From assembly GCA_046761065.1 (NCBI GenBank), contig JBHIFL010000002.1, forward strand, positions 1 to 64,000: a stretch of DNA of 64,000 nt, read 5' to 3'. Shown here in pieces: positions 15,447 to 40,153 of this stretch (position 1 is its first letter; each line of letters opens with the position of its first letter). The position numbers were made by a program, and so were the translations under genes. The DNA is from Candidatus Heimdallarchaeota archaeon (GTDB lineage: Archaea > Asgardarchaeota > Wukongarchaeia > Wukongarchaeales > JBHIFL01). The notes beneath the pieces are model-generated. The model worked only from the letters and a program-made list of their open reading frames with translations. It did not search any database and was not told the DNA's origin.

Positions 15447-18144
15447 TTAAGCTTTCACCTTATTTTGTTGAAGACGAACGCGGATACTTTCAATGAGTTT
15501 AGGGAAGTCAATGTGTTTATAGTGGAGGCGGATGGGATCGACGCCGTCTTCACCGAATTTGAATTGAATGATGTGATTGATGGCATTCCGGACAGTACCG
15601 TCATAACGCACAGTGAGGTCCTGGAGGGCGTTAATGAGACGACGTTGCATGTATCCAGATTGAGAGGTACGAACAGCAGTATCGACGAGGCCTTCACGAC
15701 CGCCTTGGGCATGGAAGAAGAACTCAATAGGATTGAGACCTTCACGATAGTTGGATTTGACAAAGCCCCGAGCGGTGGCGCCAAGGTCTTCCCGATGGAA
15801 ATGGGGAAGGGTGCGATCGCGATAGCCACGGAGGATCCGTTCACCGCGGATGGATTGTTGCCCAATGACGACGCCCATTTGGGTGTAATTGAGGATATTC
15901 CCCCGGGCGCCGGTGGTGACCATGACGGCGATAGGGTTGGTGGGGGCGAGTTGTTGGCGGGCGATTTCACCAGAGCGATCGCGGGCTTCGGAAAGGATCT
16001 GCATGACACGCATTTCCAGGGTTTCTTCAAGAGTGCGGCCGGGAAGGCGTTCCAATTCCTGGCGGTGATACGCTTCGATTAACTTTTCAACTTTGTTGAT
16101 ATTATCGTCAAGGATGCTGTCAATGCGAAGTTTGATCTCTGGTGGGACGTCGACATCATTGAGACCCATACTAAACCCGCGAATGGAGAGGAACTTCAAG
16201 AGGACTATGGAGAGTTGGTCTAAGAAGCGGCGACCTGCCTCAATCCCATGATCGACGATGAGTTTTTGAATCAAGTTTTCGGGTTCTTCGACCCCAATAG
16301 TCCCTTTGTCGATGACTCCGCAGCGGAGCTGGCCGTTTTCAATGAGGACATAGCCCTCATTGGGACAATTTTCTTTCAGGCACTCAGAATGTTTGGTGCA
16401 GGTTTTCGCGCGGGCCTCGAAGTGAAGTGTGGGAGGGAGGAAGAGGGAGAAGATTTGTTTACCTGTCCACAGGGGTTCGGGCTCAGTGACGGCAGGTGGG
16501 GGGAGAGGACCGGCATATTGCCCGGTAACTAAGAGGTTGGCGACTTCTTCGCGGGGGAGGAAGGTGCCGGCGCGGGTGAGGAGGTAGGCAGCAGAGATGT
16601 AATCATGAATAGCCCCGATGATGGGACCACCGTATTTAGGGGTAATAATATGGTTTTGGACGAGGAGAAGGATTTTAGCTTCGGCACGCCCTTCTTCTGA
16701 CTGCGGGACGTGGATATTCATTTCATCGCCATCAAAGTCGGCATTATAGGGGGGAGTGACTTGGAGGTTGAGACGGAAGGTACGGTAGGGCATGACATGG
16801 ACTAAATGGGCCATGATGGACATGCGATGGAGCGAGGGCTGCCGGTTAAAGAGGACAATATCGCCATCACGGAGGTGACGTTCAACGATGAACTCGGTGG
16901 CGAGTTCTTCGGCGACAGTAGAGCGATCAGCGACATAACGGAGATCAATCCGGCGACCATCGGGGCGAACGATATAGTTAGCTCCCGGGAAGCCGTCAGG
17001 ACCGATGAGGATCAATTGTTTCATACTTTCGATGTTCCATTCAGTAACCCGTTCGGGAATGGTAAGAATGCGAGCAATTTCCTTGGGGATACCAACTTCA
17101 TTGATGCTGAGATTGGGATCAGGACTGATGACGGTGCGAGCGGAGAAATCAACGCGTTTCCCGGAGAGGTGGCCGCGAAAACGGCCTTCTTTCCCTTTAA
17201 GGCGTTGGGCGAGGGTACGGAGGGTGCGACCGGAGCGATGGCGGGCAGGGGGGATCCCGGAGACTTCATTATCAAAGAAGGTGGTGACGTGGTACTGGAG
17301 GAGTTCCCAGAGATCTTCGACAATGAGTTGCGGAGCTCCAGCTTCGATATTTTCGCGGAGGCGTTGATTAATGCGAATCGTGTCGACAAGCTTATGGGTG
17401 AGATCATCTTCGGAGCGGACGCCCGTTTCGAGGATGATAGAGGGACGAACGGCGACAGGGGGGACTGGAAGGACGGTGAGGACAATCCATTCTGGGCGCG
17501 CGTAGCGTGGGTCAAAGCCCAGGAGGATGGCGTCTTCGTTGGAAATACGTTCAAGGCGATCACGAATTTCGGAGGGGGAGAGCCGATAATTCCCTTCTTC
17601 GGTTTCCTCATATATAGTGGTGGGTTTCTCAAATTTGATTTTAAACTGAGGATTGCCACAATGGGGGCATTCCATAAGTTTTTTGGCGTTTTTCAGGACC
17701 TCATCAGTTGTAGAACGGAACTGTTCAGTCCGCATATCCCGGAAGTTCGTGAGGGTTTCTTGAAAGGTTTCGAGTTTTTCGGGGGGGAGAAGTATGCGAG
17801 AACAATCGCGACAAATTGATTGGAGGATTTTATGGGCTAACTTGGCATGGCCAACATGAAGGACAGGGCGTGCTAACTCAATATGCCCAAAATGACCGGG
17901 ACATTCGCCAACGCGGTTCCCACAGGTACGACAACGTTGGCCCGGCTCAATAGTCCCCAAGCGAGAATCCATCAAGCCAGAGCTAATGGGAGTGCCATCC
18001 TCATCATACGTTTACAGAGTGAGGGGAGGAAGCCCGTCACCGATCTGCCGTGATGATTCTGGCTGCGGACATTTTTCGTATGTCTTCTGGGGCTAGCAAG
18101 CCGAACTGAATCGATTCAATCTTCTTTAATGGGACTTTAGACAA
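15447..18144 (-). CDS. rpoA1: DNA-directed RNA polymerase subunit A' (Rpo1N); two exons, 18144-18043 and 18011-15447; 888 aa when spliced
   Basis: exon 1 encodes (M)SKVPLKKIESIQFGLLAPEDIRKMSAARIITAD; exon 2 starts TYDEDGTPISSGLMDSRLG; also CPGHFGH, NADFDGD and GGREGLVDTAV motifs. Confidence 0.97.
18012..18042 (-). other. BHB-type intron in rpoA1 pre-mRNA (31 nt)
   Basis: minus strand reads ACG-GCAG-AT|C-GGTGA-CGGGCTTCCTCCCC-TCACT-CTGT-AA|A-CGT: 4-bp central helix, two 3-nt bulges, flanking helices; removal restores ITADTYDEDG. Confidence 0.9.
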
Positions 18145-18597
18145 TGGGTCAACCCCTAGAGCGCGAGAGTAAACTAACGATATAAGCTCAAGAATAAAAA
18201 TAAAGCACTCCGCAAAAATTAGCAAGGGGATGGGATTAAAATCTTGTCAAAGGGACATAAGAGCGTCTGAAAGAAAAAGGTGTAGAAGAATGAGGAGGAA
18301 ATTCTGCCTGAGTGGTGGGAAAAAGGGAGAAAGAAAGCGTATGAGCAGGCTCCAAAGAAGCCCCCGATGCGACAAAGGAGATCACCGCCATACCGTTGGA
18401 AAATCAAAGGAAAGAAGGAAGGGATCCCTAAAAGGCGTGTAGGATGTTGGAAGGGAAAGGTTATGGAAAAAAGAGGAGGGAGCCACGCTGTAAGAGGAGA
18501 AACAAAAACCTTAAGATGAGAAGTCCTAAAGAATAAATAAGAAATGGAGCATGGTAGAGTAGGTGTGTCCGAGAGAAAAAAGAGGACTGGTGAGAAG

Positions 18598-19851
18598 ATG
18601 AAGGGAATTATCCTAGCAGCAACGAAGGGAGCCTATCTCGACCCGCTAACTGAAGGGAAACCGAAAGCGATGATCAAGATCTCAGGGAAGCCGTTGGTGC
18701 AGCATACGATTGAAGCGTTTCGAGATTCGGGGATTCGTGAGTTAATTGTGGTGATCGGCTATAAGGGTGAACAAGTGGTAGAGGAGTTAGGGACGGGAGA
18801 GGCTATCGGGGTGTCACTCACCTATGTAAAGCAAGAAGCACCAGAGGGGGTGGGCCAAGCCGTTTTGGCAGCAAAAAACGCTTTAATAGGAGAAGAACGG
18901 TTTATTTTAGCCTATTCAGATGTGATCATCGCCCCCGAAATGATTGGACGGCTGATCAACGTATCAGATCAAGAGGGGGGCAAAATGACCTTTTCTATCA
19001 CCCTGACGCCTGAGACGAGTCATAGTGGAGTGGTTTACCGGGACGAAGAGGGATGTGTGACTCGAACGGTGGAGAATCCCCTTCCAGGGACTGAAAAAAG
19101 CTATTATGTACTTTCAGGGTTGTATCTGCTAGGACCAACCATTTTAGACCAACTGGAACAAACATCAGCGTTTCCAGAGGCCATTCAAGAGTTAATCAGA
19201 GCCAAAGAGAAGATTTATACTTCTGTGTGGGAGAAACAGTGGGCACACATCCGGTATCCTTGGGACCTGTTCGAGGTAAACCGATTGTTGCTTGATCGAA
19301 TTCAGGAGACGCGAATTCATCGAACTGCGAAGGTGGAACCTAACGTCTCGATCGAACACCCGGTGGTGATCGATAGTGGGGCAATCATTCGACCAGGGGC
19401 AACCCTCCGGGGACCTTCGTATATCGGACCAAATGCGTACATCGGGAATAACAGCCTGATTCGAGAATATACGGACTTAGCGGAGAATGTCCAAATCGGA
19501 TTCTCTTCGGAGATCAAAAAATCCTTGGTGATGGAGAACACGAAGATAGGCAGCCTATCCTATATTGGGGATAGTCTAATTGGGATGAACAGTGAGCTGA
19601 CCGCAGGGATCACGACCATGAACGTCTCAATCCCGCCTGCGCCTTTGGTCGTGACAATCAATGAGAAAGAGTATCAGCCAAATCTGAAGAAACTGGGGGC
19701 GATTGTGGGGAATGGGACCCGAATTAGTGCGAATGTCTCGACCTATCCGGGGGTAATCATTGGGGCGAATGCCCAAATCGGGCCAGGGGCGACCATCACG
19801 CGAAATATCCCCCCGAATAAAGAAGTGCATGCGAACCCCAGCAGATTCTAA
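18598..19851 (+). CDS. sugar-phosphate nucleotidyltransferase with left-handed beta-helix (archaeal GlmU-like)
   Basis: MKGIILAA..G..L.PLT..KPKAMI, YPWDL, hexapeptide repeats, KLGAIVG. Confidence 0.85.
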   Translation: MKGIILAATKGAYLDPLTEGKPKAMIKISGKPLVQHTIEAFRDSGIRELIVVIGYKGEQVVEELGTGEAIGVSLTYVKQEAPEGVGQAVLAAKNALIGEERFILAYSDVIIAPEMIGRLINVSDQEGGKMTFSITLTPETSHSGVVYRDEEGCVTRTVENPLPGTEKSYYVLSGLYLLGPTILDQLEQTSAFPEAIQELIRAKEKIYTSVWEKQWAHIRYPWDLFEVNRLLLDRIQETRIHRTAKVEPNVSIEHPVVIDSGAIIRPGATLRGPSYIGPNAYIGNNSLIREYTDLAENVQIGFSSEIKKSLVMENTKIGSLSYIGDSLIGMNSELTAGITTMNVSIPPAPLVVTINEKEYQPNLKKLGAIVGNGTRISANVSTYPGVIIGANAQIGPGATITRNIPPNKEVHANPSRF

Positions 19852-19915
19852 GGTGCGGTTTGCAACCATCAAACTCAATTGAAGATCCCCAGCAGGTAGA
19901 AGAAGGGAGAATAGA

Positions 19916-20071
19916 TGGGCGGGAGGGGAGATTCGTCAAGAGCAGTGATGAACATGTCCTGAATTCGAACCCCTGACCGCCGGGTCCCGTTCGAGGGGCT
20001 TACCCACTGAAGAATAGCCCAAACCCGGAATCATACCAATCTAGCCATCAAGGTATCTAGACCACCCGCCC
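19916..20071 (-). tRNA. tRNA-Pro(TGG) with three introns: D-loop 20039-20054, anticodon loop ~19986-20017, T-loop 19930-19963
   Basis: removing 16+32+34 nt from 156 nt gives a 74-nt cloverleaf GGGCGGGTGGTCTAGATTGGTATGATTCCGGGTTTGGGACCCGGCGGTCAGGGGTTCGAATCCCCTCCCGCCCA. Confidence 0.9.
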
Positions 20072-20386
20072 AGCTCATTTTCTTTAGGAGAGTTACGAGA
20101 AGAGTACGGGGATGGACAACTGAGCAATTATTTCAGGAGCAGTGAGGTAGCATAGGAGTTTATACAAAGAGGATATAAATATGCGGGTTTGGGGGAGAAG
20201 ACGCCTTTGTGGAAGTGGTGTTTCCGTGTATATAAAAAATGGACTTAGATGTTTGTCCCTTGGGTACAACCTTTTTGGGGAATAGTGTCCGCTCTTACGG
20301 GCTCAAGGAGAGAAAGCGAAGGGAAACCCCTCCCCGAATAAAGAGGAGGGGATAAGGGCGGTATTGAGCTAGGAAGTAGAGTGGAC

Positions 20387-21106
20387 TTACTGGTCATGGC
20401 AGATATTATCAATCGCAATGGTTAAGCCAACGATGAGGAGGCGGTCAACTTGGGGATCCTTGATATGAATGCCATAACTGTCTCCGTAATCGAATATGCC
20501 GTTCAAAAAAAAATCGCGCCATTTATCCGCTTTTTCAACTTCCGCTACAAGATTGCCTTTCTGATCCTGAATAGTGAAGTGAAAACCCATAAAATTGCCT
20601 TGAGCTTTCAAGATTTTCTTCCCCCGATGGTCTTCCAACCAGAGGGACGGGCGAAATACGCTAGTGAGTTTCTTTTTCACTCGACCACGGAGGTTATCTG
20701 TCGCATCTTTAATGTCATAGGTGGGACGGATGGTCACGATCTTTTGGTTGATGGTAGCTGCGATGGTTTGATTGTCAGCCTCTTTAAATTCAATGAGTTT
20801 TCTGATGGAGAGAATGCGGCGATGCATGTGGCCAATCTCATTACCAGCGCGATCATAGATTGGGCCACTCCCCCAATCCCAGTATTTTTCCCGTAAGAAA
20901 TAATATTCTCTTGCGGGGTCAAAGAGTGCACTGGGACGAGGTGCTCCAGCGCGTGTTGGAGCAAAGGGCTCAGGTCGGAGCTCCGCATCAGCTGGGGAGG
21001 GTATTTTCATTGCAGCAGAATCGGCAAGATGAACGGTTGCACCGCATTGACTGCAAAAGCGTTGATCCGGCAGTATCTCATTTCCACACTGACTGCAAAA
21101 AGTCAT
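20387..21106 (-). CDS. zinc-ribbon plus LURP-one-related (tubby/scramblase-like) protein
   Basis: FCSQCG..FCSQCG double zinc ribbon; KIVTIRPTYDI, AQGNFMGFHFTI, DSYGIHI, IAID. Confidence 0.8.
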   Translation of the reverse strand: MTFCSQCGNEILPDQRFCSQCGATVHLADSAAMKIPSPADAELRPEPFAPTRAGAPRPSALFDPAREYYFLREKYWDWGSGPIYDRAGNEIGHMHRRILSIRKLIEFKEADNQTIAATINQKIVTIRPTYDIKDATDNLRGRVKKKLTSVFRPSLWLEDHRGKKILKAQGNFMGFHFTIQDQKGNLVAEVEKADKWRDFFLNGIFDYGDSYGIHIKDPQVDRLLIVGLTIAIDNICHDQ

Positions 21107-21289
21107 TAGATTCACCGAGTATATTTTTGCTGAAGGAATATTTAACTTTGTTCTAAATGAAAAGTGGGACTTATCTTCCAAAAATTAGATTCAAGAAAAA
21201 TAATTACTCAAAATCAAAACCGATCTATCCAGCCATACATTTCTTGTAAAGACACATAAAGAACTTTTTCAATAACTTGAGTGGTTTAA

Positions 21290-21878
21290 GTGTCATCAGG
21301 ACTTTTTTCTAAAAGAATGAGATCCTAAGGTGTAGTGGAGGAGTCAATAAGGGCAAAGGTTTCTACCAGCCTTTAGTTGGTGAGCTAAGGGCGGAGGAAC
21401 TTCAGGTCAGGTGGCAGTAATGCAGATCTTATCATAGGGAGCACTAGGCGGATAGTCCAAGGCACCTTCGCCACGAGGGAGTAGGACATCGATATATACT
21501 GATTTTTCCAGATTGCTGCGGGCAAATGTGTAGGTTGCGGGATCAATCGCAATGGTGACTACTAGCCCTTTGTTCCTAACGATTTCCCGTGTGAGTATTG
21601 CGCCATAGTTCATTTCTGCGCCCACTTCTAGGAAAGTGTTCTATTCAGTCAATTTTAGGACTTATAAAAAAGGGGATAACTATGGGGGGAGGAGATCGTG
21701 GAATTCGCGTCAGGTAGAATGAGAGGGATCTCGAGGTAAGCATAATCTTTGTATCCTTAGGGAATGAAGTCTTCATGAGGGGCTTGGAGCATCGCCTCCT
21801 GAACCCAAGTGGATTTTAAAAAGCTGTGGTTTATGAGCCACTCTACTCTTTCTTGGCATGTTGTTGAAACTCTTGCAT
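21290..21878 (-). pseudogene. protein-L-isoaspartate O-methyltransferase pseudogene
   Basis: fragments EAMLQAPHEDFIP*GYKDYAY, STISSPH, FLEVG, APYDKICITAT, with stops and frameshifts; ends approximate. Confidence 0.75.
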
Positions 21879-22276
21879 CGTTTTTTCTGGTTGTTTATTG
21901 GCGAAACAATCCATCCCCACCTCTTATAGGATCTTTCTCTTTCAGGGAGGCCATCTTGCGGGCGATATTCGCCCAAAACAGAAATGGGTTCAAAATAACA
22001 TTTCCAACAGTAAACCTGATACTATGGATAAAAATCACTTTCGAGACCGTTTTGAAAAGTTATAGAGCTAATCTAAAAAATAACCCCTTTCAGAGTTAGT
22101 GAGCCATATTTATTCCTATCCTGAGGTATTATATTAGCTCCTTCAAGAGGAATTTGGATTTATGTAATATAGTAAACACAGGAAGCCTTAAGATATTTCT
22201 TTTAGATGATAATCTGCAACAGTTTTTCCAATGAGATATCTTTAAGAATTATTTCGGCTGCTCAACATAGATATCC

Positions 22277-23128
22277 ATGGAAAAGGAGAACGTGGGAATA
22301 GTGCATCATGAACTTGTGGGGTTAATTCCTGCCGCAGGGGAAGGGACAAGATTATATCCATTTGCCCGAGCCGTCCCTAAAGAAATCTATCCACTGTTGG
22401 GAAAACCAGTTATTGAACATGCAGTGGAAAACTTGAGGATGGGAGGAATTCAGAAAATCTTTTTGATTGTTGGGTACCAAAAGGGTGCGTTAATGGATTA
22501 TTTAGGAGATGGGAGTCAATTTGATGTTAGTATTGCATATATTTTTCAGCTGCAACGCCGTGGCTTGGGGCATGCAATTTTACAGGCGAAAGACTGGATT
22601 GATACATCCTTCGTCACGTTACTTGGCGATTCCTTTGTCGAACCGAAATTGGAGGTAGCTAAGCTAATTGATTTGCATAAAACAAAGAAACCTCTAGCTA
22701 CTTTATTACTCTTCAATGTCCATGATCCTACCAATTATGGGATTGCAAAAATGAATGGGATTGAAGGGCATTCAGGGATGATTGAGGCGTTGGTTGAGAA
22801 ACCCACACCTAAAGAGGCCCAAAATTATCTTGTAAGCGGTGAATATCATGCAATATGCGGATTCTATGTGTTTGAACCAGAAATTTTTGGCTACATTGAA
22901 CAGACGCCCCCAGGAGCGAAGAATGAAATTCAAATCACAGATGCTCTAGAACTCGCGATTCAAAGTGGGGAGACTGTTTGCGGACATATCTTGAACGGAA
23001 AATATCTGGATATCGGAAAATGGCATACCGTTCTCCAAGCCGAAAAAGACCTCCTTGAGGCAAGAGGTTTAGAGAATTATATTAAAGATCGAGAACAGCT
23101 GAGAAAACAATTAAATCAGAATTTATGA
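22277..23128 (+). CDS. sugar-1-phosphate nucleotidyltransferase (RmlA/GalU-like)
   Basis: GLIPAAGEGTRL.P...PKE, GLGHAI, LVEKP, EIQITDAL, YLDIG. Confidence 0.9.
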   Translation: MEKENVGIVHHELVGLIPAAGEGTRLYPFARAVPKEIYPLLGKPVIEHAVENLRMGGIQKIFLIVGYQKGALMDYLGDGSQFDVSIAYIFQLQRRGLGHAILQAKDWIDTSFVTLLGDSFVEPKLEVAKLIDLHKTKKPLATLLLFNVHDPTNYGIAKMNGIEGHSGMIEALVEKPTPKEAQNYLVSGEYHAICGFYVFEPEIFGYIEQTPPGAKNEIQITDALELAIQSGETVCGHILNGKYLDIGKWHTVLQAEKDLLEARGLENYIKDREQLRKQLNQNL

Positions 23129-23361
23129 AAAGTTCGTGAAGGATGGTTGTTCCTCTAAAAAAGAGAAACCTGCTTGTTTTCTGTTTTCCCATTTGAAAAG
23201 TGTCAAGGACGCATTTCCTGCGTTGAATAAGAGAAAGGATCGCTTTTCTGGAACTAGGTAATATTAATGCTCGAAAAATAAACCTTTAAAGGTTGACATT
23301 TTTAAAGTGAATATATTTTGGTTTACATTTAGTAAAATTTTACTGCTTACAAATAAATGAG

Positions 23362-24006
23362 GTGAGCCCCATATACTTTATTGTAACCTGTGATCTTATC
23401 CACTCAAAAAAGGCGTTAGATCGATCCCAAGTCCAACAAGAATTGAGGAAAGCAGTGGATATTGTTAATAGAGAATATAGACAAAAGCTCGTATGCCCAT
23501 TTATAACTGTTTGGGGGGATTCCTTCCAAGGAGCTCTAAAATCTCTAAAAGGTTTCTATAACCTCATAGAAACCTTTGAAGAGCTAATTTCAGTAGAATT
23601 CAGGTGTGGGATTGGAGTTGGGAAGCTCACCACCGAAATTTCCACGACCACGCTAGAGATGGATGGTCCAGCGTTCCATCGCTCGCGAGCCGCGCTGGAT
23701 ATAGCGGAAAAAGGCCAACGACGAGTTTGGATTCAATCAGGGAATCACGTTTTTGATGGGATGGTGAATAGTATATTGACGCTATTATATGCGCTTAAAA
23801 GCCGATGGACACCCCATCAAAAAGAAATAATTCGAATGAGACGAAAAGGAATGACGTATGCTGAGATTGGAGAAAAGAAAAAGATAAGTAAACAAGCGGT
23901 TTACAAGAGTTTAAAAACCGCAAAGTGGGAGGAAGCGTTCCTAGCAATTCGGACACTGAATAATTTAACAGGAACTTATTTTAAGCAGTTGGAGGGCATG
24001 GAATGA
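23362..24006 (+). CDS. SatD family protein
   Basis: TCDLIHSK, GDSFQG, GIGVG, MDGPAF, C-terminal HTH (ISKQAV). Confidence 0.85.
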   Translation: MSPIYFIVTCDLIHSKKALDRSQVQQELRKAVDIVNREYRQKLVCPFITVWGDSFQGALKSLKGFYNLIETFEELISVEFRCGIGVGKLTTEISTTTLEMDGPAFHRSRAALDIAEKGQRRVWIQSGNHVFDGMVNSILTLLYALKSRWTPHQKEIIRMRRKGMTYAEIGEKKKISKQAVYKSLKTAKWEEAFLAIRTLNNLTGTYFKQLEGME

Positions 24007-24413
24007 ACCTTTACGGAATTATAATTCTAATTAGCGCTTATATAGTGGGGATATTTGGCGGAGCGCCACTAGTTGGACGAGTCTTGAAGAATTTCGCTAT
24101 CTCACAAATCCCTCAATTAGAAGAAGGACTGCCTCGAGCGGGAAGAATGATTGGAATGCTCGAAAGAAGCATCATACTGACATTCAGTTTCTTTGGTGAT
24201 TTCGCCTCAATTTCCTTTATTTTCTTGGCAAAATCAATGGCGCGGTTCCGACAGCTTGAAAATCGACAATTTGCGGAATATTATCTCATCGGAACCTTAT
24301 TAAGTTTCTTTTTCGCCCTCCTTGTGTGGATCATGGTCGAAGTCATTTGGGATGCCTTACAATTATCTCCTTTCCCACTCGTAAACTTGAATTGGTTTAC
24401 TACTTTCATGTAA
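24003..24413 (+). CDS. membrane protein of the type associated with SatD (DUF3307-like)
   Basis: AGRMIGMLER, AKSMARF, AEYYLIGTLLSF; ATGA overlap with the SatD gene. Confidence 0.75.
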   Translation: MNLYGIIILISAYIVGIFGGAPLVGRVLKNFAISQIPQLEEGLPRAGRMIGMLERSIILTFSFFGDFASISFIFLAKSMARFRQLENRQFAEYYLIGTLLSFFFALLVWIMVEVIWDALQLSPFPLVNLNWFTTFM

Positions 24414-24626
24414 TCTTTTTCAGGTTAACTTTTTCACTATCAAACAAATATTTAAAGGGTCTTACCATATGAGATTAAAAGATTATATCTTACCATATTA
24501 GTAATTTATATAATCGGTGTTATCCCAATGATACTTGTTTTCTCCCTCCGATTTTGCCTATCCTATGTGACCCCTTCCTTACCGCCTATATTAGGACAAA
24601 TGTTTTTGACAAAAATGTTTTCACCC

Positions 24627-25271
24627 TTATAGATCAATTTCTTGTGCACGATAATAAGTAACATCTCCACTCCGATCAATAACAGCCAAAAGGAGTTGTT
24701 TTCGAGCTGCAAGAGCAATTGAAAAGAGATATTCGAGGGTTTCTAGTGGAAGCCGCTTCCCTTCAACCATTGGAGCAACAAATAACTTAGCTGGATCCCG
24801 CCCCGGTTGCCCACCCCGCTGATAGACCCGGAATAAAATTGGATCTTCAAAGCCAATCCGGACAATGTATCCTCGCATTCGCAAATCCTTATAAACCAGG
24901 TAGTTAACCCAAAAGTCGTTGTTTTTCATGACAAAGTAGTGAACTACTTGCTGAAGAGTCATTTGAGAGCTGGCTTTTTCATCTAAAATCACCAGGCGTT
25001 TTCGCTCGATCAAGTTTATAGCCTCTACATCACTAAGAAGTAAAGTTTCTTGGTCTTTCAATTCCCCATAAAAACCCGTATTGTACAAGATACTCGCTCC
25101 TGGACCGATAACAAGGATTCGACCATTCTGGAACACGCCAGTAGCCACAAAAACCTCTTCTTCAAGTCCGGTAGGTCTCTCTTCTTCGTTTCCGTTTTCG
25201 ATTGTTTCATCACCCACGAGAGAGCACCTTCCAACTAAAAAACATCTTGAATACCTAATGTATACTCTCAA
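24627..25271 (-). CDS. endA: tRNA splicing endonuclease subunit, probably the structural (beta) type
   Basis: LS.VEA..L, YLVYKDLRMRGY, FRVY.RG, RKQLLLAVID..GDVTYY; catalytic His and G(L)KFG motif not evident; true start may be downstream. Confidence 0.85.
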   Translation of the reverse strand: MRVYIRYSRCFLVGRCSLVGDETIENGNEEERPTGLEEEVFVATGVFQNGRILVIGPGASILYNTGFYGELKDQETLLLSDVEAINLIERKRLVILDEKASSQMTLQQVVHYFVMKNNDFWVNYLVYKDLRMRGYIVRIGFEDPILFRVYQRGGQPGRDPAKLFVAPMVEGKRLPLETLEYLFSIALAARKQLLLAVIDRSGDVTYYRAQEIDL

Positions 25272-25513
25272 ACACCGAAAAATAGAATAAGAAACTTGTG
25301 ATGCATACGTAATTTTGCTCTTATAAGAAGGAAAATGTAAAAAAAGTCAGAAGGAGAAATAAATAAACGATTCAATGTCTTTTTCCTCTTTCGAGTCTAA
25401 TTAACCTTGATAACACTTTTTTACCAATGCCCAGAATTAACATAGTTGATTAACTAAGCCATAATAAAAGCCTTATCGAGTGCATATAAAATACTAAAAA
25501 AAGTTGATCACTT

Positions 25514-35207: not shown

Positions 35208-35308
35208 GCTCCGGTAGCCTAGTGGTAGGGCGACAGCCTCGTAAATTTAAAGAGTTAAAAAATGTTCGGGAAAGCTGTAGATCGCGGGTTCGATCCCCGC
35301 CCGGAGCT
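35208..35308 (+). tRNA. tRNA-Thr(CGT) with a canonical 37/38 intron (35244-35272)
   Basis: GCTCCGG/CCGGAGC acceptor stem, ACAGC-CTCGTA|A-GCTGT anticodon arm, GTTCGATC; TTTAAA box about 20 nt upstream. Confidence 0.93.
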
Positions 35309-39996: not shown

Positions 39997-40153
39997 GCTG
40001 GGGTAGCCAAGCGGACAATATCCAATAGGTAATTGGCATATATGGAAAACGGCGCTGGCCTTGAGATCTCTGAAAATAAGGAAAATTTTATCAGAGAATG
40101 GTCAGTCAGTGGTCCATTGGACCTCGTGGGTTCGAATCCCACCCCCAGCGCCA
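39997..40153 (+). tRNA. tRNA-Ser(TGA) with two introns (D-loop ~40017-40047; 37/38 intron 40066-40103) and encoded CCA
   Basis: GCTGGGG/CCCCAGC acceptor stem, G discriminator, CTGGC-CTTGAG|A-GTCAG anticodon arm, long variable arm GGTCC..GGACC, GTTCGAATCC. Confidence 0.9.

Follow-up and report, generated by a model that had tools for sequence, protein, structure and literature searches.

The window, that is, the whole stretch of 64,000 nucleotides that was analysed, carries on its minus strand a tRNA-Pro gene of 156 nt (the focal gene, read from position 20071 to 19916) whose body is interrupted in the D loop, the anticodon loop and the T loop (Table 1). The three introns make up 82 of the 156 nt, in line with an earlier reading made from the sequence alone, which had put the intron share at more than half. 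When the introns are removed at the registers given by their BHB motifs, the remaining 74-mer is called by ARAGORN as a full-length tRNA-Pro(cgg) with a standard cloverleaf, so the earlier view of a functional-looking tRNA-Pro with three BHB introns is borne out. The body is of the Pro type, with G1-C72, A73 and, in the only BHB-valid register, the anticodon C34-G35-G36 followed by G37. A BHB was taken to be a central helix of 4 bp, formed by exon and intron, together with two 3-nt bulges on opposite strands, and all three introns have 4/4 central pairs. Register scores were obtained with a home-made BHB scorer. The gene was also read with a home-made cloverleaf solver that skips sequence only at BHB-valid introns, and this solver returned three-intron solutions only, with the anticodon CGG in all top solutions. 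Shuffled introns matched the observed BHB score in 5 of 2000 cases for intron 1, 8 of 2000 for intron 2 and 0 of 2000 for intron 3. The gene had been expected to escape default tRNA finders, and it does: ARAGORN reported zero tRNA anywhere in the window, and Rfam gave no match at the focal gene at the gathering threshold or at E<=10.

Table 1. Parts of the focal tRNA-Pro gene and associated features. Coordinates are positions in the window unless a contig (C) is named.
Feature	Coordinates	Strand	Description and basis
Whole tRNA-Pro gene	19916..20071	-	74-nt mature body, CCA not encoded; spliced model is tRNA-Pro (ARAGORN)
Exon 1	20055..20071	-	Positions 1-17: acceptor 5' strand, U8, D-stem 5' strand, start of D loop
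Intron 1	20039..20054	-	16 nt, D loop 17/17a, relaxed BHB; register scan, shuffles, paralogs and orthologs
Exon 2	20022..20038	-	Positions 17a-33: remainder of D arm, 26, anticodon-stem 5' strand, U32, U33
Intron 2	19990..20021	-	32 nt, between 33 and 34; register scan, shuffles, covariation, orthologs
Exon 3	19964..19989	-	Positions 34-59: anticodon CGG, G37, A38, anticodon-stem 3' strand, variable loop, T-stem 5' strand, T loop to A59
Intron 3	19930..19963	-	34 nt, T loop 59/60, strict hBHBh'; MFE fold, shuffles, site conservation in orthologs
Exon 4	19916..19929	-	Positions 60-73: U60, T-stem 3' strand, acceptor 3' strand, A73
TATA-like box ATTTATAT	20173..20180	-	102-109 nt upstream of the tRNA 5' end
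EndA paralog	24627..25271	-	214 aa, putative structural (beta-like) subunit; Pfam tRNA_int_endo, 65.8 bits
EndA, catalytic type	C15:7589-7843		E 7e-41 to the catalytic subunit of the Aeropyrum pernix heterotetramer
tRNA-Pro(UGG) (L015)	C1:33630-33456	-	Four introns: 17/17a (16 nt), 33/34 (33 nt), 45/46 (22 nt), 59/60 (30 nt)
tRNA-Pro(GGG)	C28:4400-4174	-	227 nt, five introns: 17/17a, 24/25, 33/34, 42/43, 59/60

The D-loop and T-loop introns were both found as they had been described in the sequence-only reading. The D-loop intron at 17/17a has a CUAG/CUAG central helix, bulges AU-A and AU-U (the hyphen marks the splice point), an inner helix of 2 bp and an outer helix of 1 bp. A 6-nt repeat permits seven registers of the same 16-nt length, and the register scan ranks 17/17a as the best of them. 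The same intron site and helix are shared by 10 other Pro genes. In further Asgard families, Pro genes either carry the same kind of D-loop intron, built on CUAG, or have a D loop of 9 nt, a length consistent with 17/17a. An 18-nt intron cut at 15/16, with the central helix UACC/GGUA, gives a score equal to that of 17/17a in the focal gene and in its sister gene on contig C1. It was rejected because, as reasoned from the sequences, a central pair would be lost in 5 of 11 Pro genes (C28, L105, L107, L109 and L110), and because the 9-nt D loop of the Pro genes from other Asgard families suits 17/17a. The T-loop intron at 59/60 scores 22, with 4/4 central pairs (UUCG/CGAA), an inner helix of 6 bp, an outer helix of 5 bp that is the T stem, and bulges AA-U and UC-U. 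Its BHB is the minimum-free-energy (MFE) fold. The strict hBHBh' form is complete at 59/60, and the motifs at 33/34 and 17/17a are relaxed forms. On the strand opposite the T-loop intron, Rfam C/D-box snoRNA models gave scores of 14 and 19 bits, far under threshold, and these matches were judged to be due to chance since the C-box-like word is missing from the orthologous introns of two metagenomic genes, L106 and L108.

The anticodon-loop intron is where the present analysis departs from the sequence-only reading, which had called the gene tRNA-Pro(TGG) and had regarded the junction of a 32-nt intron as ambiguous within GGG. The 32-nt intron itself was upheld by the shuffles, but the ambiguity was not, because a BHB is found only at 33/34, which scores 17.5 in the register scan against at most 9.5 at registers 34/35 to 37/38. 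At 33/34 there are 4/4 central pairs, an inner helix of 5 bp and an outer helix of 3 bp. The central helix joins C28-G31 with the intron strand CUCG, the bulges are UU-U and AA-C, and the inner helix follows directly; the outer helix is weak, consisting of one C-G and two G-U pairs. From 34/35 to 37/38, central pairs number no more than 2 to 4 and flanking helices are missing: 37/38, with a score of 9.5, has 2/4 central pairs, and 36/37 has 4/4 central pairs and no flanking helix. Since 33/34 is the sole register with a BHB motif, the anticodon is read as CGG and not UGG. The middle intron then lies 5' of the wobble base, so that the entire anticodon comes from exon 3, and moving the register to 33/34 turns nucleotide 34 from U into C. 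The intron starts with UGGG, an anticodon look-alike, and the TTTGGG at the junction of exon 2 and the intron would be intron sequence that builds the inner helix and not an anticodon. The reading favoured here is that the gene is an Asgard tRNA-Pro(CGG) whose body is broken by three BHB introns, of 16 nt at 17/17a, 32 nt between U33 and C34 and 34 nt at 59/60, and we put its probability at roughly 0.84.

The competing reading retains tRNA-Pro(UGG), with an intron at or near 37/38 within the GGG run, which would make the focal gene a second UGG gene. In the unspliced gene, TTTGGG does follow a perfect 5' strand of the anticodon stem, and removal of 32 nt at 34/35 to 37/38 leaves a cloverleaf that ARAGORN calls Pro(tgg). 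Additionally, Pro(UGG) genes from other Asgard families carry 37/38 introns, and the MFE fold of the precursor retains the mature-like anticodon stem. However, no BHB exists at the registers of the GGG run, and forcing a BHB costs 13.5 kcal/mol relative to the MFE at 37/38 as opposed to 6.4 kcal/mol at 33/34. The isolated precursor favours the mature-like anticodon stem over the 33/34 BHB conformer by this latter amount, and because the 33/34 BHB is not the MFE fold, cleavage there would need a refolded or enzyme-stabilised conformer.

The proline tRNA genes in the rest of the genome bear on the same question. BLAST of the focal gene against its own genome recovered the sister gene on C1, a tRNA-Pro(UGG) with four introns that reads UGG in every register and has the 33/34 BHB as in the focal gene. 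Whether the focal gene is the only Pro(TGG) gene had been proposed as a check on the earlier reading, and the outcome is that Pro(UGG) is encoded by this separate gene. The C1 gene matches the focal gene at 92% identity over its first 53 nt, D-loop intron included, and the remaining introns are unrelated in sequence, a pattern that suggests partial gene conversion or intron turnover. The mature products of the two genes are distinguishable at positions 16, 44, 50 and 64, and the T stem holds a compensatory pair (G50-C64 in the focal gene and A50-U64 in C1), which shows that both genes have been kept foldable. A third gene, on C28, is a tRNA-Pro(GGG) with five introns. Its 33/34 intron is unambiguous, with the central helix CUGC/GCAG and an inner helix of 10 bp; its weakest motifs are those at 24/25 and 59/60, whose scores were matched by 179 and 93 of 2000 shuffles, respectively. 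Taken as CGG, UGG and GGG, the three genes form a complete and non-redundant proline set, whereas the competing UGG reading would leave two UGG genes and zero CGG gene. Further Pro-type anticodon arms were scanned for; none lay in a tRNA context, and no other Pro gene with an uninterrupted arm turned up. Candidate anticodon arms on C59, C24 and C13 were rejected because the tRNA context is absent. A second 'Pro(tgg)' that ARAGORN reported at C125:1003-1146 when introns were allowed was also rejected, as its acceptor stem and U73 are unfit for Pro and the solver finds no Pro solution. The assembly (4.42 Mb in 234 contigs, 42% GC, 91.5% complete) has an estimated contamination of 8.2%, and with that figure in mind the three Pro paralogs probably belong to one genome.

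A metagenome scan yielded eight orthologous genes. Two are of the focal type (L106 and L108; 157 nt, three introns) and six are of the C1 type (175 nt, four introns). L108 is syntenic with window positions 17293-25422 at 80-84% identity, and its exons are identical to those of the focal gene at 74 of 74 positions. At both 17/17a and 33/34 the central helix has 4/4 pairs in 11 of 11 genes (focal, C1, C28 and the eight orthologs), and at 59/60 the seven C1-type genes have 3/4 central pairs and the other four genes (focal, L108, L106 and C28) have 4/4. On its intron side, the 33/34 helix reads CUCG, CCCG, UCCG or CCUG, that is, with C/U changes only and with pairing kept, while the inner helix is altered on both strands and the third bulge base is U or A. 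In a MAFFT alignment of nine genes, the BHB structure at 33/34 has 96.6% of cells paired compared to at most 67.8% when it is slid to other registers. Pairing of the central helix is 100% in this alignment, where three positions switch between G-C and G-U, three inner-helix pairs have changed on both sides, and none of 500 shuffles matched the observed pairing or covariation score.

The orthologs also bear directly on where the anticodon is encoded. In L107, L109 and L110 the intron begins with A-G-A/G, so the 5' side cannot supply an anticodon and only 33/34 yields a tRNA there. These orthologs of the sister gene exclude a family intron at 37/38, and in L106 the look-alike itself is broken (TTTGGT in place of TTTGGG); together with the BHB geometry and the paralogs, this makes tRNA-Pro(UGG) with an intron in the GGG run distinctly unlikely and points to Pro(CGG). 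The first base of exon 3 is C in 3/3 focal-type genes and U in 7/7 C1-type genes, with exon 3 starting C-G-G-G-A in L106 and L108 and U-G-G-G-A in the six four-intron orthologs. It should be noted that the conservation of C34 is drawn from three CGG-type genes, which are a small and related sample. A pattern search for the D-loop-intron architecture in two genomes of the same order (87-92% complete) gave no match.

A further alternative is that the precursor is cut in two registers and yields both the CGG and the UGG isoacceptor. This would make use of the two valid cloverleaves, which differ only at position 34, and of the competing conformers of the precursor. However, the second register has no BHB, the look-alike is not conserved in L106, and the genome has a dedicated UGG gene on C1, so that dual-register splicing is given very little probability. 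As for the history of the introns of the tRNA-Pro(CGG) gene, active intron spread had been proposed for this lineage, and the comparison speaks against it: all three introns occupy the same sites in orthologs with flanks that are about 80% identical, and the T-loop intron is unlike the other 24 introns found at 59/60 in this genome. On these comparisons the introns of the focal gene are taken to be old and vertically kept.

The flanks of the gene contain few conventional signals. No promoter was seen at the usual distance and no oligo-T terminator was seen downstream of the focal gene. A TATA-like box further upstream is (nearly) invariant in the window, L108 and L106 within an otherwise diverged spacer, and an A-rich block adjoining the tRNA 5' end is conserved in L108 and L106. 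The TATA-like box is possibly a promoter and, if it is, the transcript would have a long leader of about 75-80 nt. The missing terminator and the missing promoter at the usual distance, together with the CCA end that is not encoded, are what a decaying or non-functional tRNA-like pseudogene with insertions that are never removed might look like. That explanation has to contend with a perfect spliced cloverleaf, three intact BHB motifs that beat shuffles, exons that are identical across species with flanks differing by 16-20%, and compensatory changes in stems and BHB helices alike. The focal gene is also the sole candidate for the CGG isoacceptor. A pseudogene is therefore considered highly improbable.

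The steps by which a functional tRNA-Pro(CGG) would arise can be laid out from the motifs, with their conservation and covariation, and from the enzyme genes, all of which are observed in the sequence; from these we infer cleavage at the sites given above, the subunit make-up of the enzyme and the use of the tRNA in translation. In a minus-strand precursor of at least 156 nt, exon and intron would pair at each site over 4 bp, with a 3-nt bulge at either end of the helix. Each bulge would then be cut behind its second nucleotide by the archaeal splicing endonuclease, which makes six cuts in all. The enzyme is probably a heteromer of the catalytic EndA encoded on C15 and the His-less paralog encoded in the window. 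RtcB would join the four exons, the CCA end would be added afterwards, and the product should read the codon CCG.

Of the two EndA paralogs, the one in the window lies 4.6 kb from the focal tRNA gene. When aligned with M. jannaschii EndA (PDB alignment) it keeps the Tyr and Lys but carries Pro where the catalytic His would be, and it is probably a structural (beta-like) subunit of the splicing endonuclease. The C15 protein keeps Tyr, His and Lys. The presence of two such paralogs suggests that the endonuclease is a heteromer of the crenarchaeal type, and heteromeric EndA of this type accepts relaxed motifs (PMC4090602). RtcB is also encoded by the genome (533 bits).

The genome itself encodes ESCRT-II and profilin homologs, which are absent from 14/14 control genomes, and this identifies it as an Asgard archaeon. 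A placement in the Thermoproteota, considered because the best match of RpoA' (66%) is to a Culexarchaeia MAG, was ruled out by ESCRT-II and profilin. Among the reference genomes searched, the genome is alone in its family. The RpoA' ORF (window 15447-17975, minus strand) enters the Pfam profile of Rpb1 domain 1 only at its position 43, which implies that the N-terminus is encoded further upstream.

Rfam sees only 12 tRNA genes in the whole genome. A census anchored on acceptor stems and T arms located about 45, of which 38 were solved and about 7 tRNA-like genes were left out. The 38 solved genes carry 85 introns, or 2.24 per gene; all counts of this census are approximate, as they come from the home-made solver and some assignments are doubtful. 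At least two introns are present in 29/38 solved genes, at least three in 14/38, and an intron at 59/60 in 25/38. Nearly all of the 25 introns at 59/60 close with GAAA and one or two further bases, and this strand pairs with UUCR of the T loop. They are otherwise little alike, and the only clearly similar pair is that of C5:53160 and C28:13783, both in Ala genes.

Several other tRNA genes came to light. The sole Rfam-visible tRNA in the window (35208-35308, plus strand, 59.8 bits) is Ser(cga) with a 29-nt intron according to ARAGORN and Thr(CGT) with a 37/38 intron according to the BHB solver, and this disagreement makes it another case in which the splice register decides the anticodon. A 154-nt class II tRNA gene (window 39997-40150, plus strand) is read by the solver as Ser(UGA) with three introns and by ARAGORN as His(atg) with one 78-nt intron. 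Two long tRNA genes, at C5:32724-32469 and C12:27253-27098, are probably Trp (GGGG start, A73) and Tyr (C1-G72), respectively; the solver returned no solution for either. Their large introns carry the sense-strand C/D-box-like words GAUGAUGA ... CUGA, which are reminiscent of the intron-encoded guide RNA that exists in euryarchaeal tRNA-Trp. The 5' part of a tRNA-Val(CAC) was found from C19:45318 onward (plus strand), with no 3' part within 160 nt.

The number of introns in the focal gene had been presented as rare and as mainly a feature of the Thermoproteales. This framing does not apply here, because the genome is that of an Asgard archaeon and two to five introns per gene are the rule in such genomes, as has already been published. 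Up to 2021, three was the highest number of introns stated for an archaeal tRNA gene, and the record stood at 71 introns in 46 genes (PMC8450103). According to more recent reports, Atabeyarchaeia and Freyarchaeia have introns in 92-95% of their tRNA genes, with more than half of the genes having several (Valentin-Alvarado et al. 2024, PMC11291895), and three Asgard families have 2.2 intervening sequences per gene (2.20-2.42) and up to five per gene (Goswami et al. 2026 preprint, 10.64898/2026.10.13.758758). The present genome resembles these intron-rich Asgard archaea (Atabeyarchaeia and Freyarchaeia/Jordiarchaeia) in that nearly every tRNA gene is interrupted, with the approximate 2.24 introns per gene found here falling within the 2.20-2.42 reported there. 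It also resembles them in having up to five introns per gene, common D-arm and T-arm sites, BHB motifs at the intron boundaries and genes on which standard finders fail. A three-intron tRNA gene is thus typical for such Asgard genomes and not rare. The passages of the two reports considered here mention neither an intron at 33/34 whose look-alike sequence conceals the true anticodon nor the risk of mis-called isoacceptors that follows from it.

Compared with the Thermoproteales (Thermofilum pendens and Pyrobaculum; Sugahara 2007/2008, cited in PMC4090602 and PMC8450103), the focal gene is alike in having up to three BHB introns at non-canonical sites and, probably, in its association with a heteromeric EndA of the crenarchaeal type and of relaxed motif tolerance. 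However, the Thermoproteales belong to a different phylum and have a lower load, with a record of 71 introns in 46 genes and an average of 0.84 introns per gene (PMC8450103). Many of their introns look like recent copies of one another (Fujishima 2010, cited in PMC4090602), whereas the focal T-loop intron has no similar copy in its genome. With respect to the canonical archaeal 37/38 intron, the enzyme chemistry is the same, and so are the 4-bp helix and the two 3-nt bulges. The site in the focal gene, though, lies four nucleotides further 5', so that the anticodon is wholly in the downstream exon, and its helix is built from the anticodon-stem 5' strand and not from the loop nucleotides 32-35 as in the canonical case.

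The 33/34 intron is present in all three Pro isoacceptor genes and across species with flanks diverged to about 70% identity. One proposal is that it has been retained for a job of its own, for example an intron-dependent modification of nucleotide 32 or 34 or the blocking of premature use of the precursor, with the look-alike as a by-product that could lead annotation pipelines to mis-call Pro(CGG) genes in this lineage as Pro(UGG). We consider this proposal, taken as a whole, to be unlikely.

Beyond the 2024 paper and the 2026 preprint, nothing categorically new is found here, and the gene is ordinary for its lineage, of which it is a well-documented example. The present analysis corrects the isoacceptor and clearly documents an intron that lies 5' of the wobble base and opens with an imitation of an anticodon. 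The window holds both a tRNA substrate and one of the two EndA paralogs. The orthologs and paralogs provide support, independent of the motif, for a non-canonical 33/34 site that is common to the whole isoacceptor family. In intron-rich Asgard genomes the isoacceptor is unreadable from the gene until the splice register is fixed; in the focal gene, a shift of one nucleotide alters the set of codons that is decoded.
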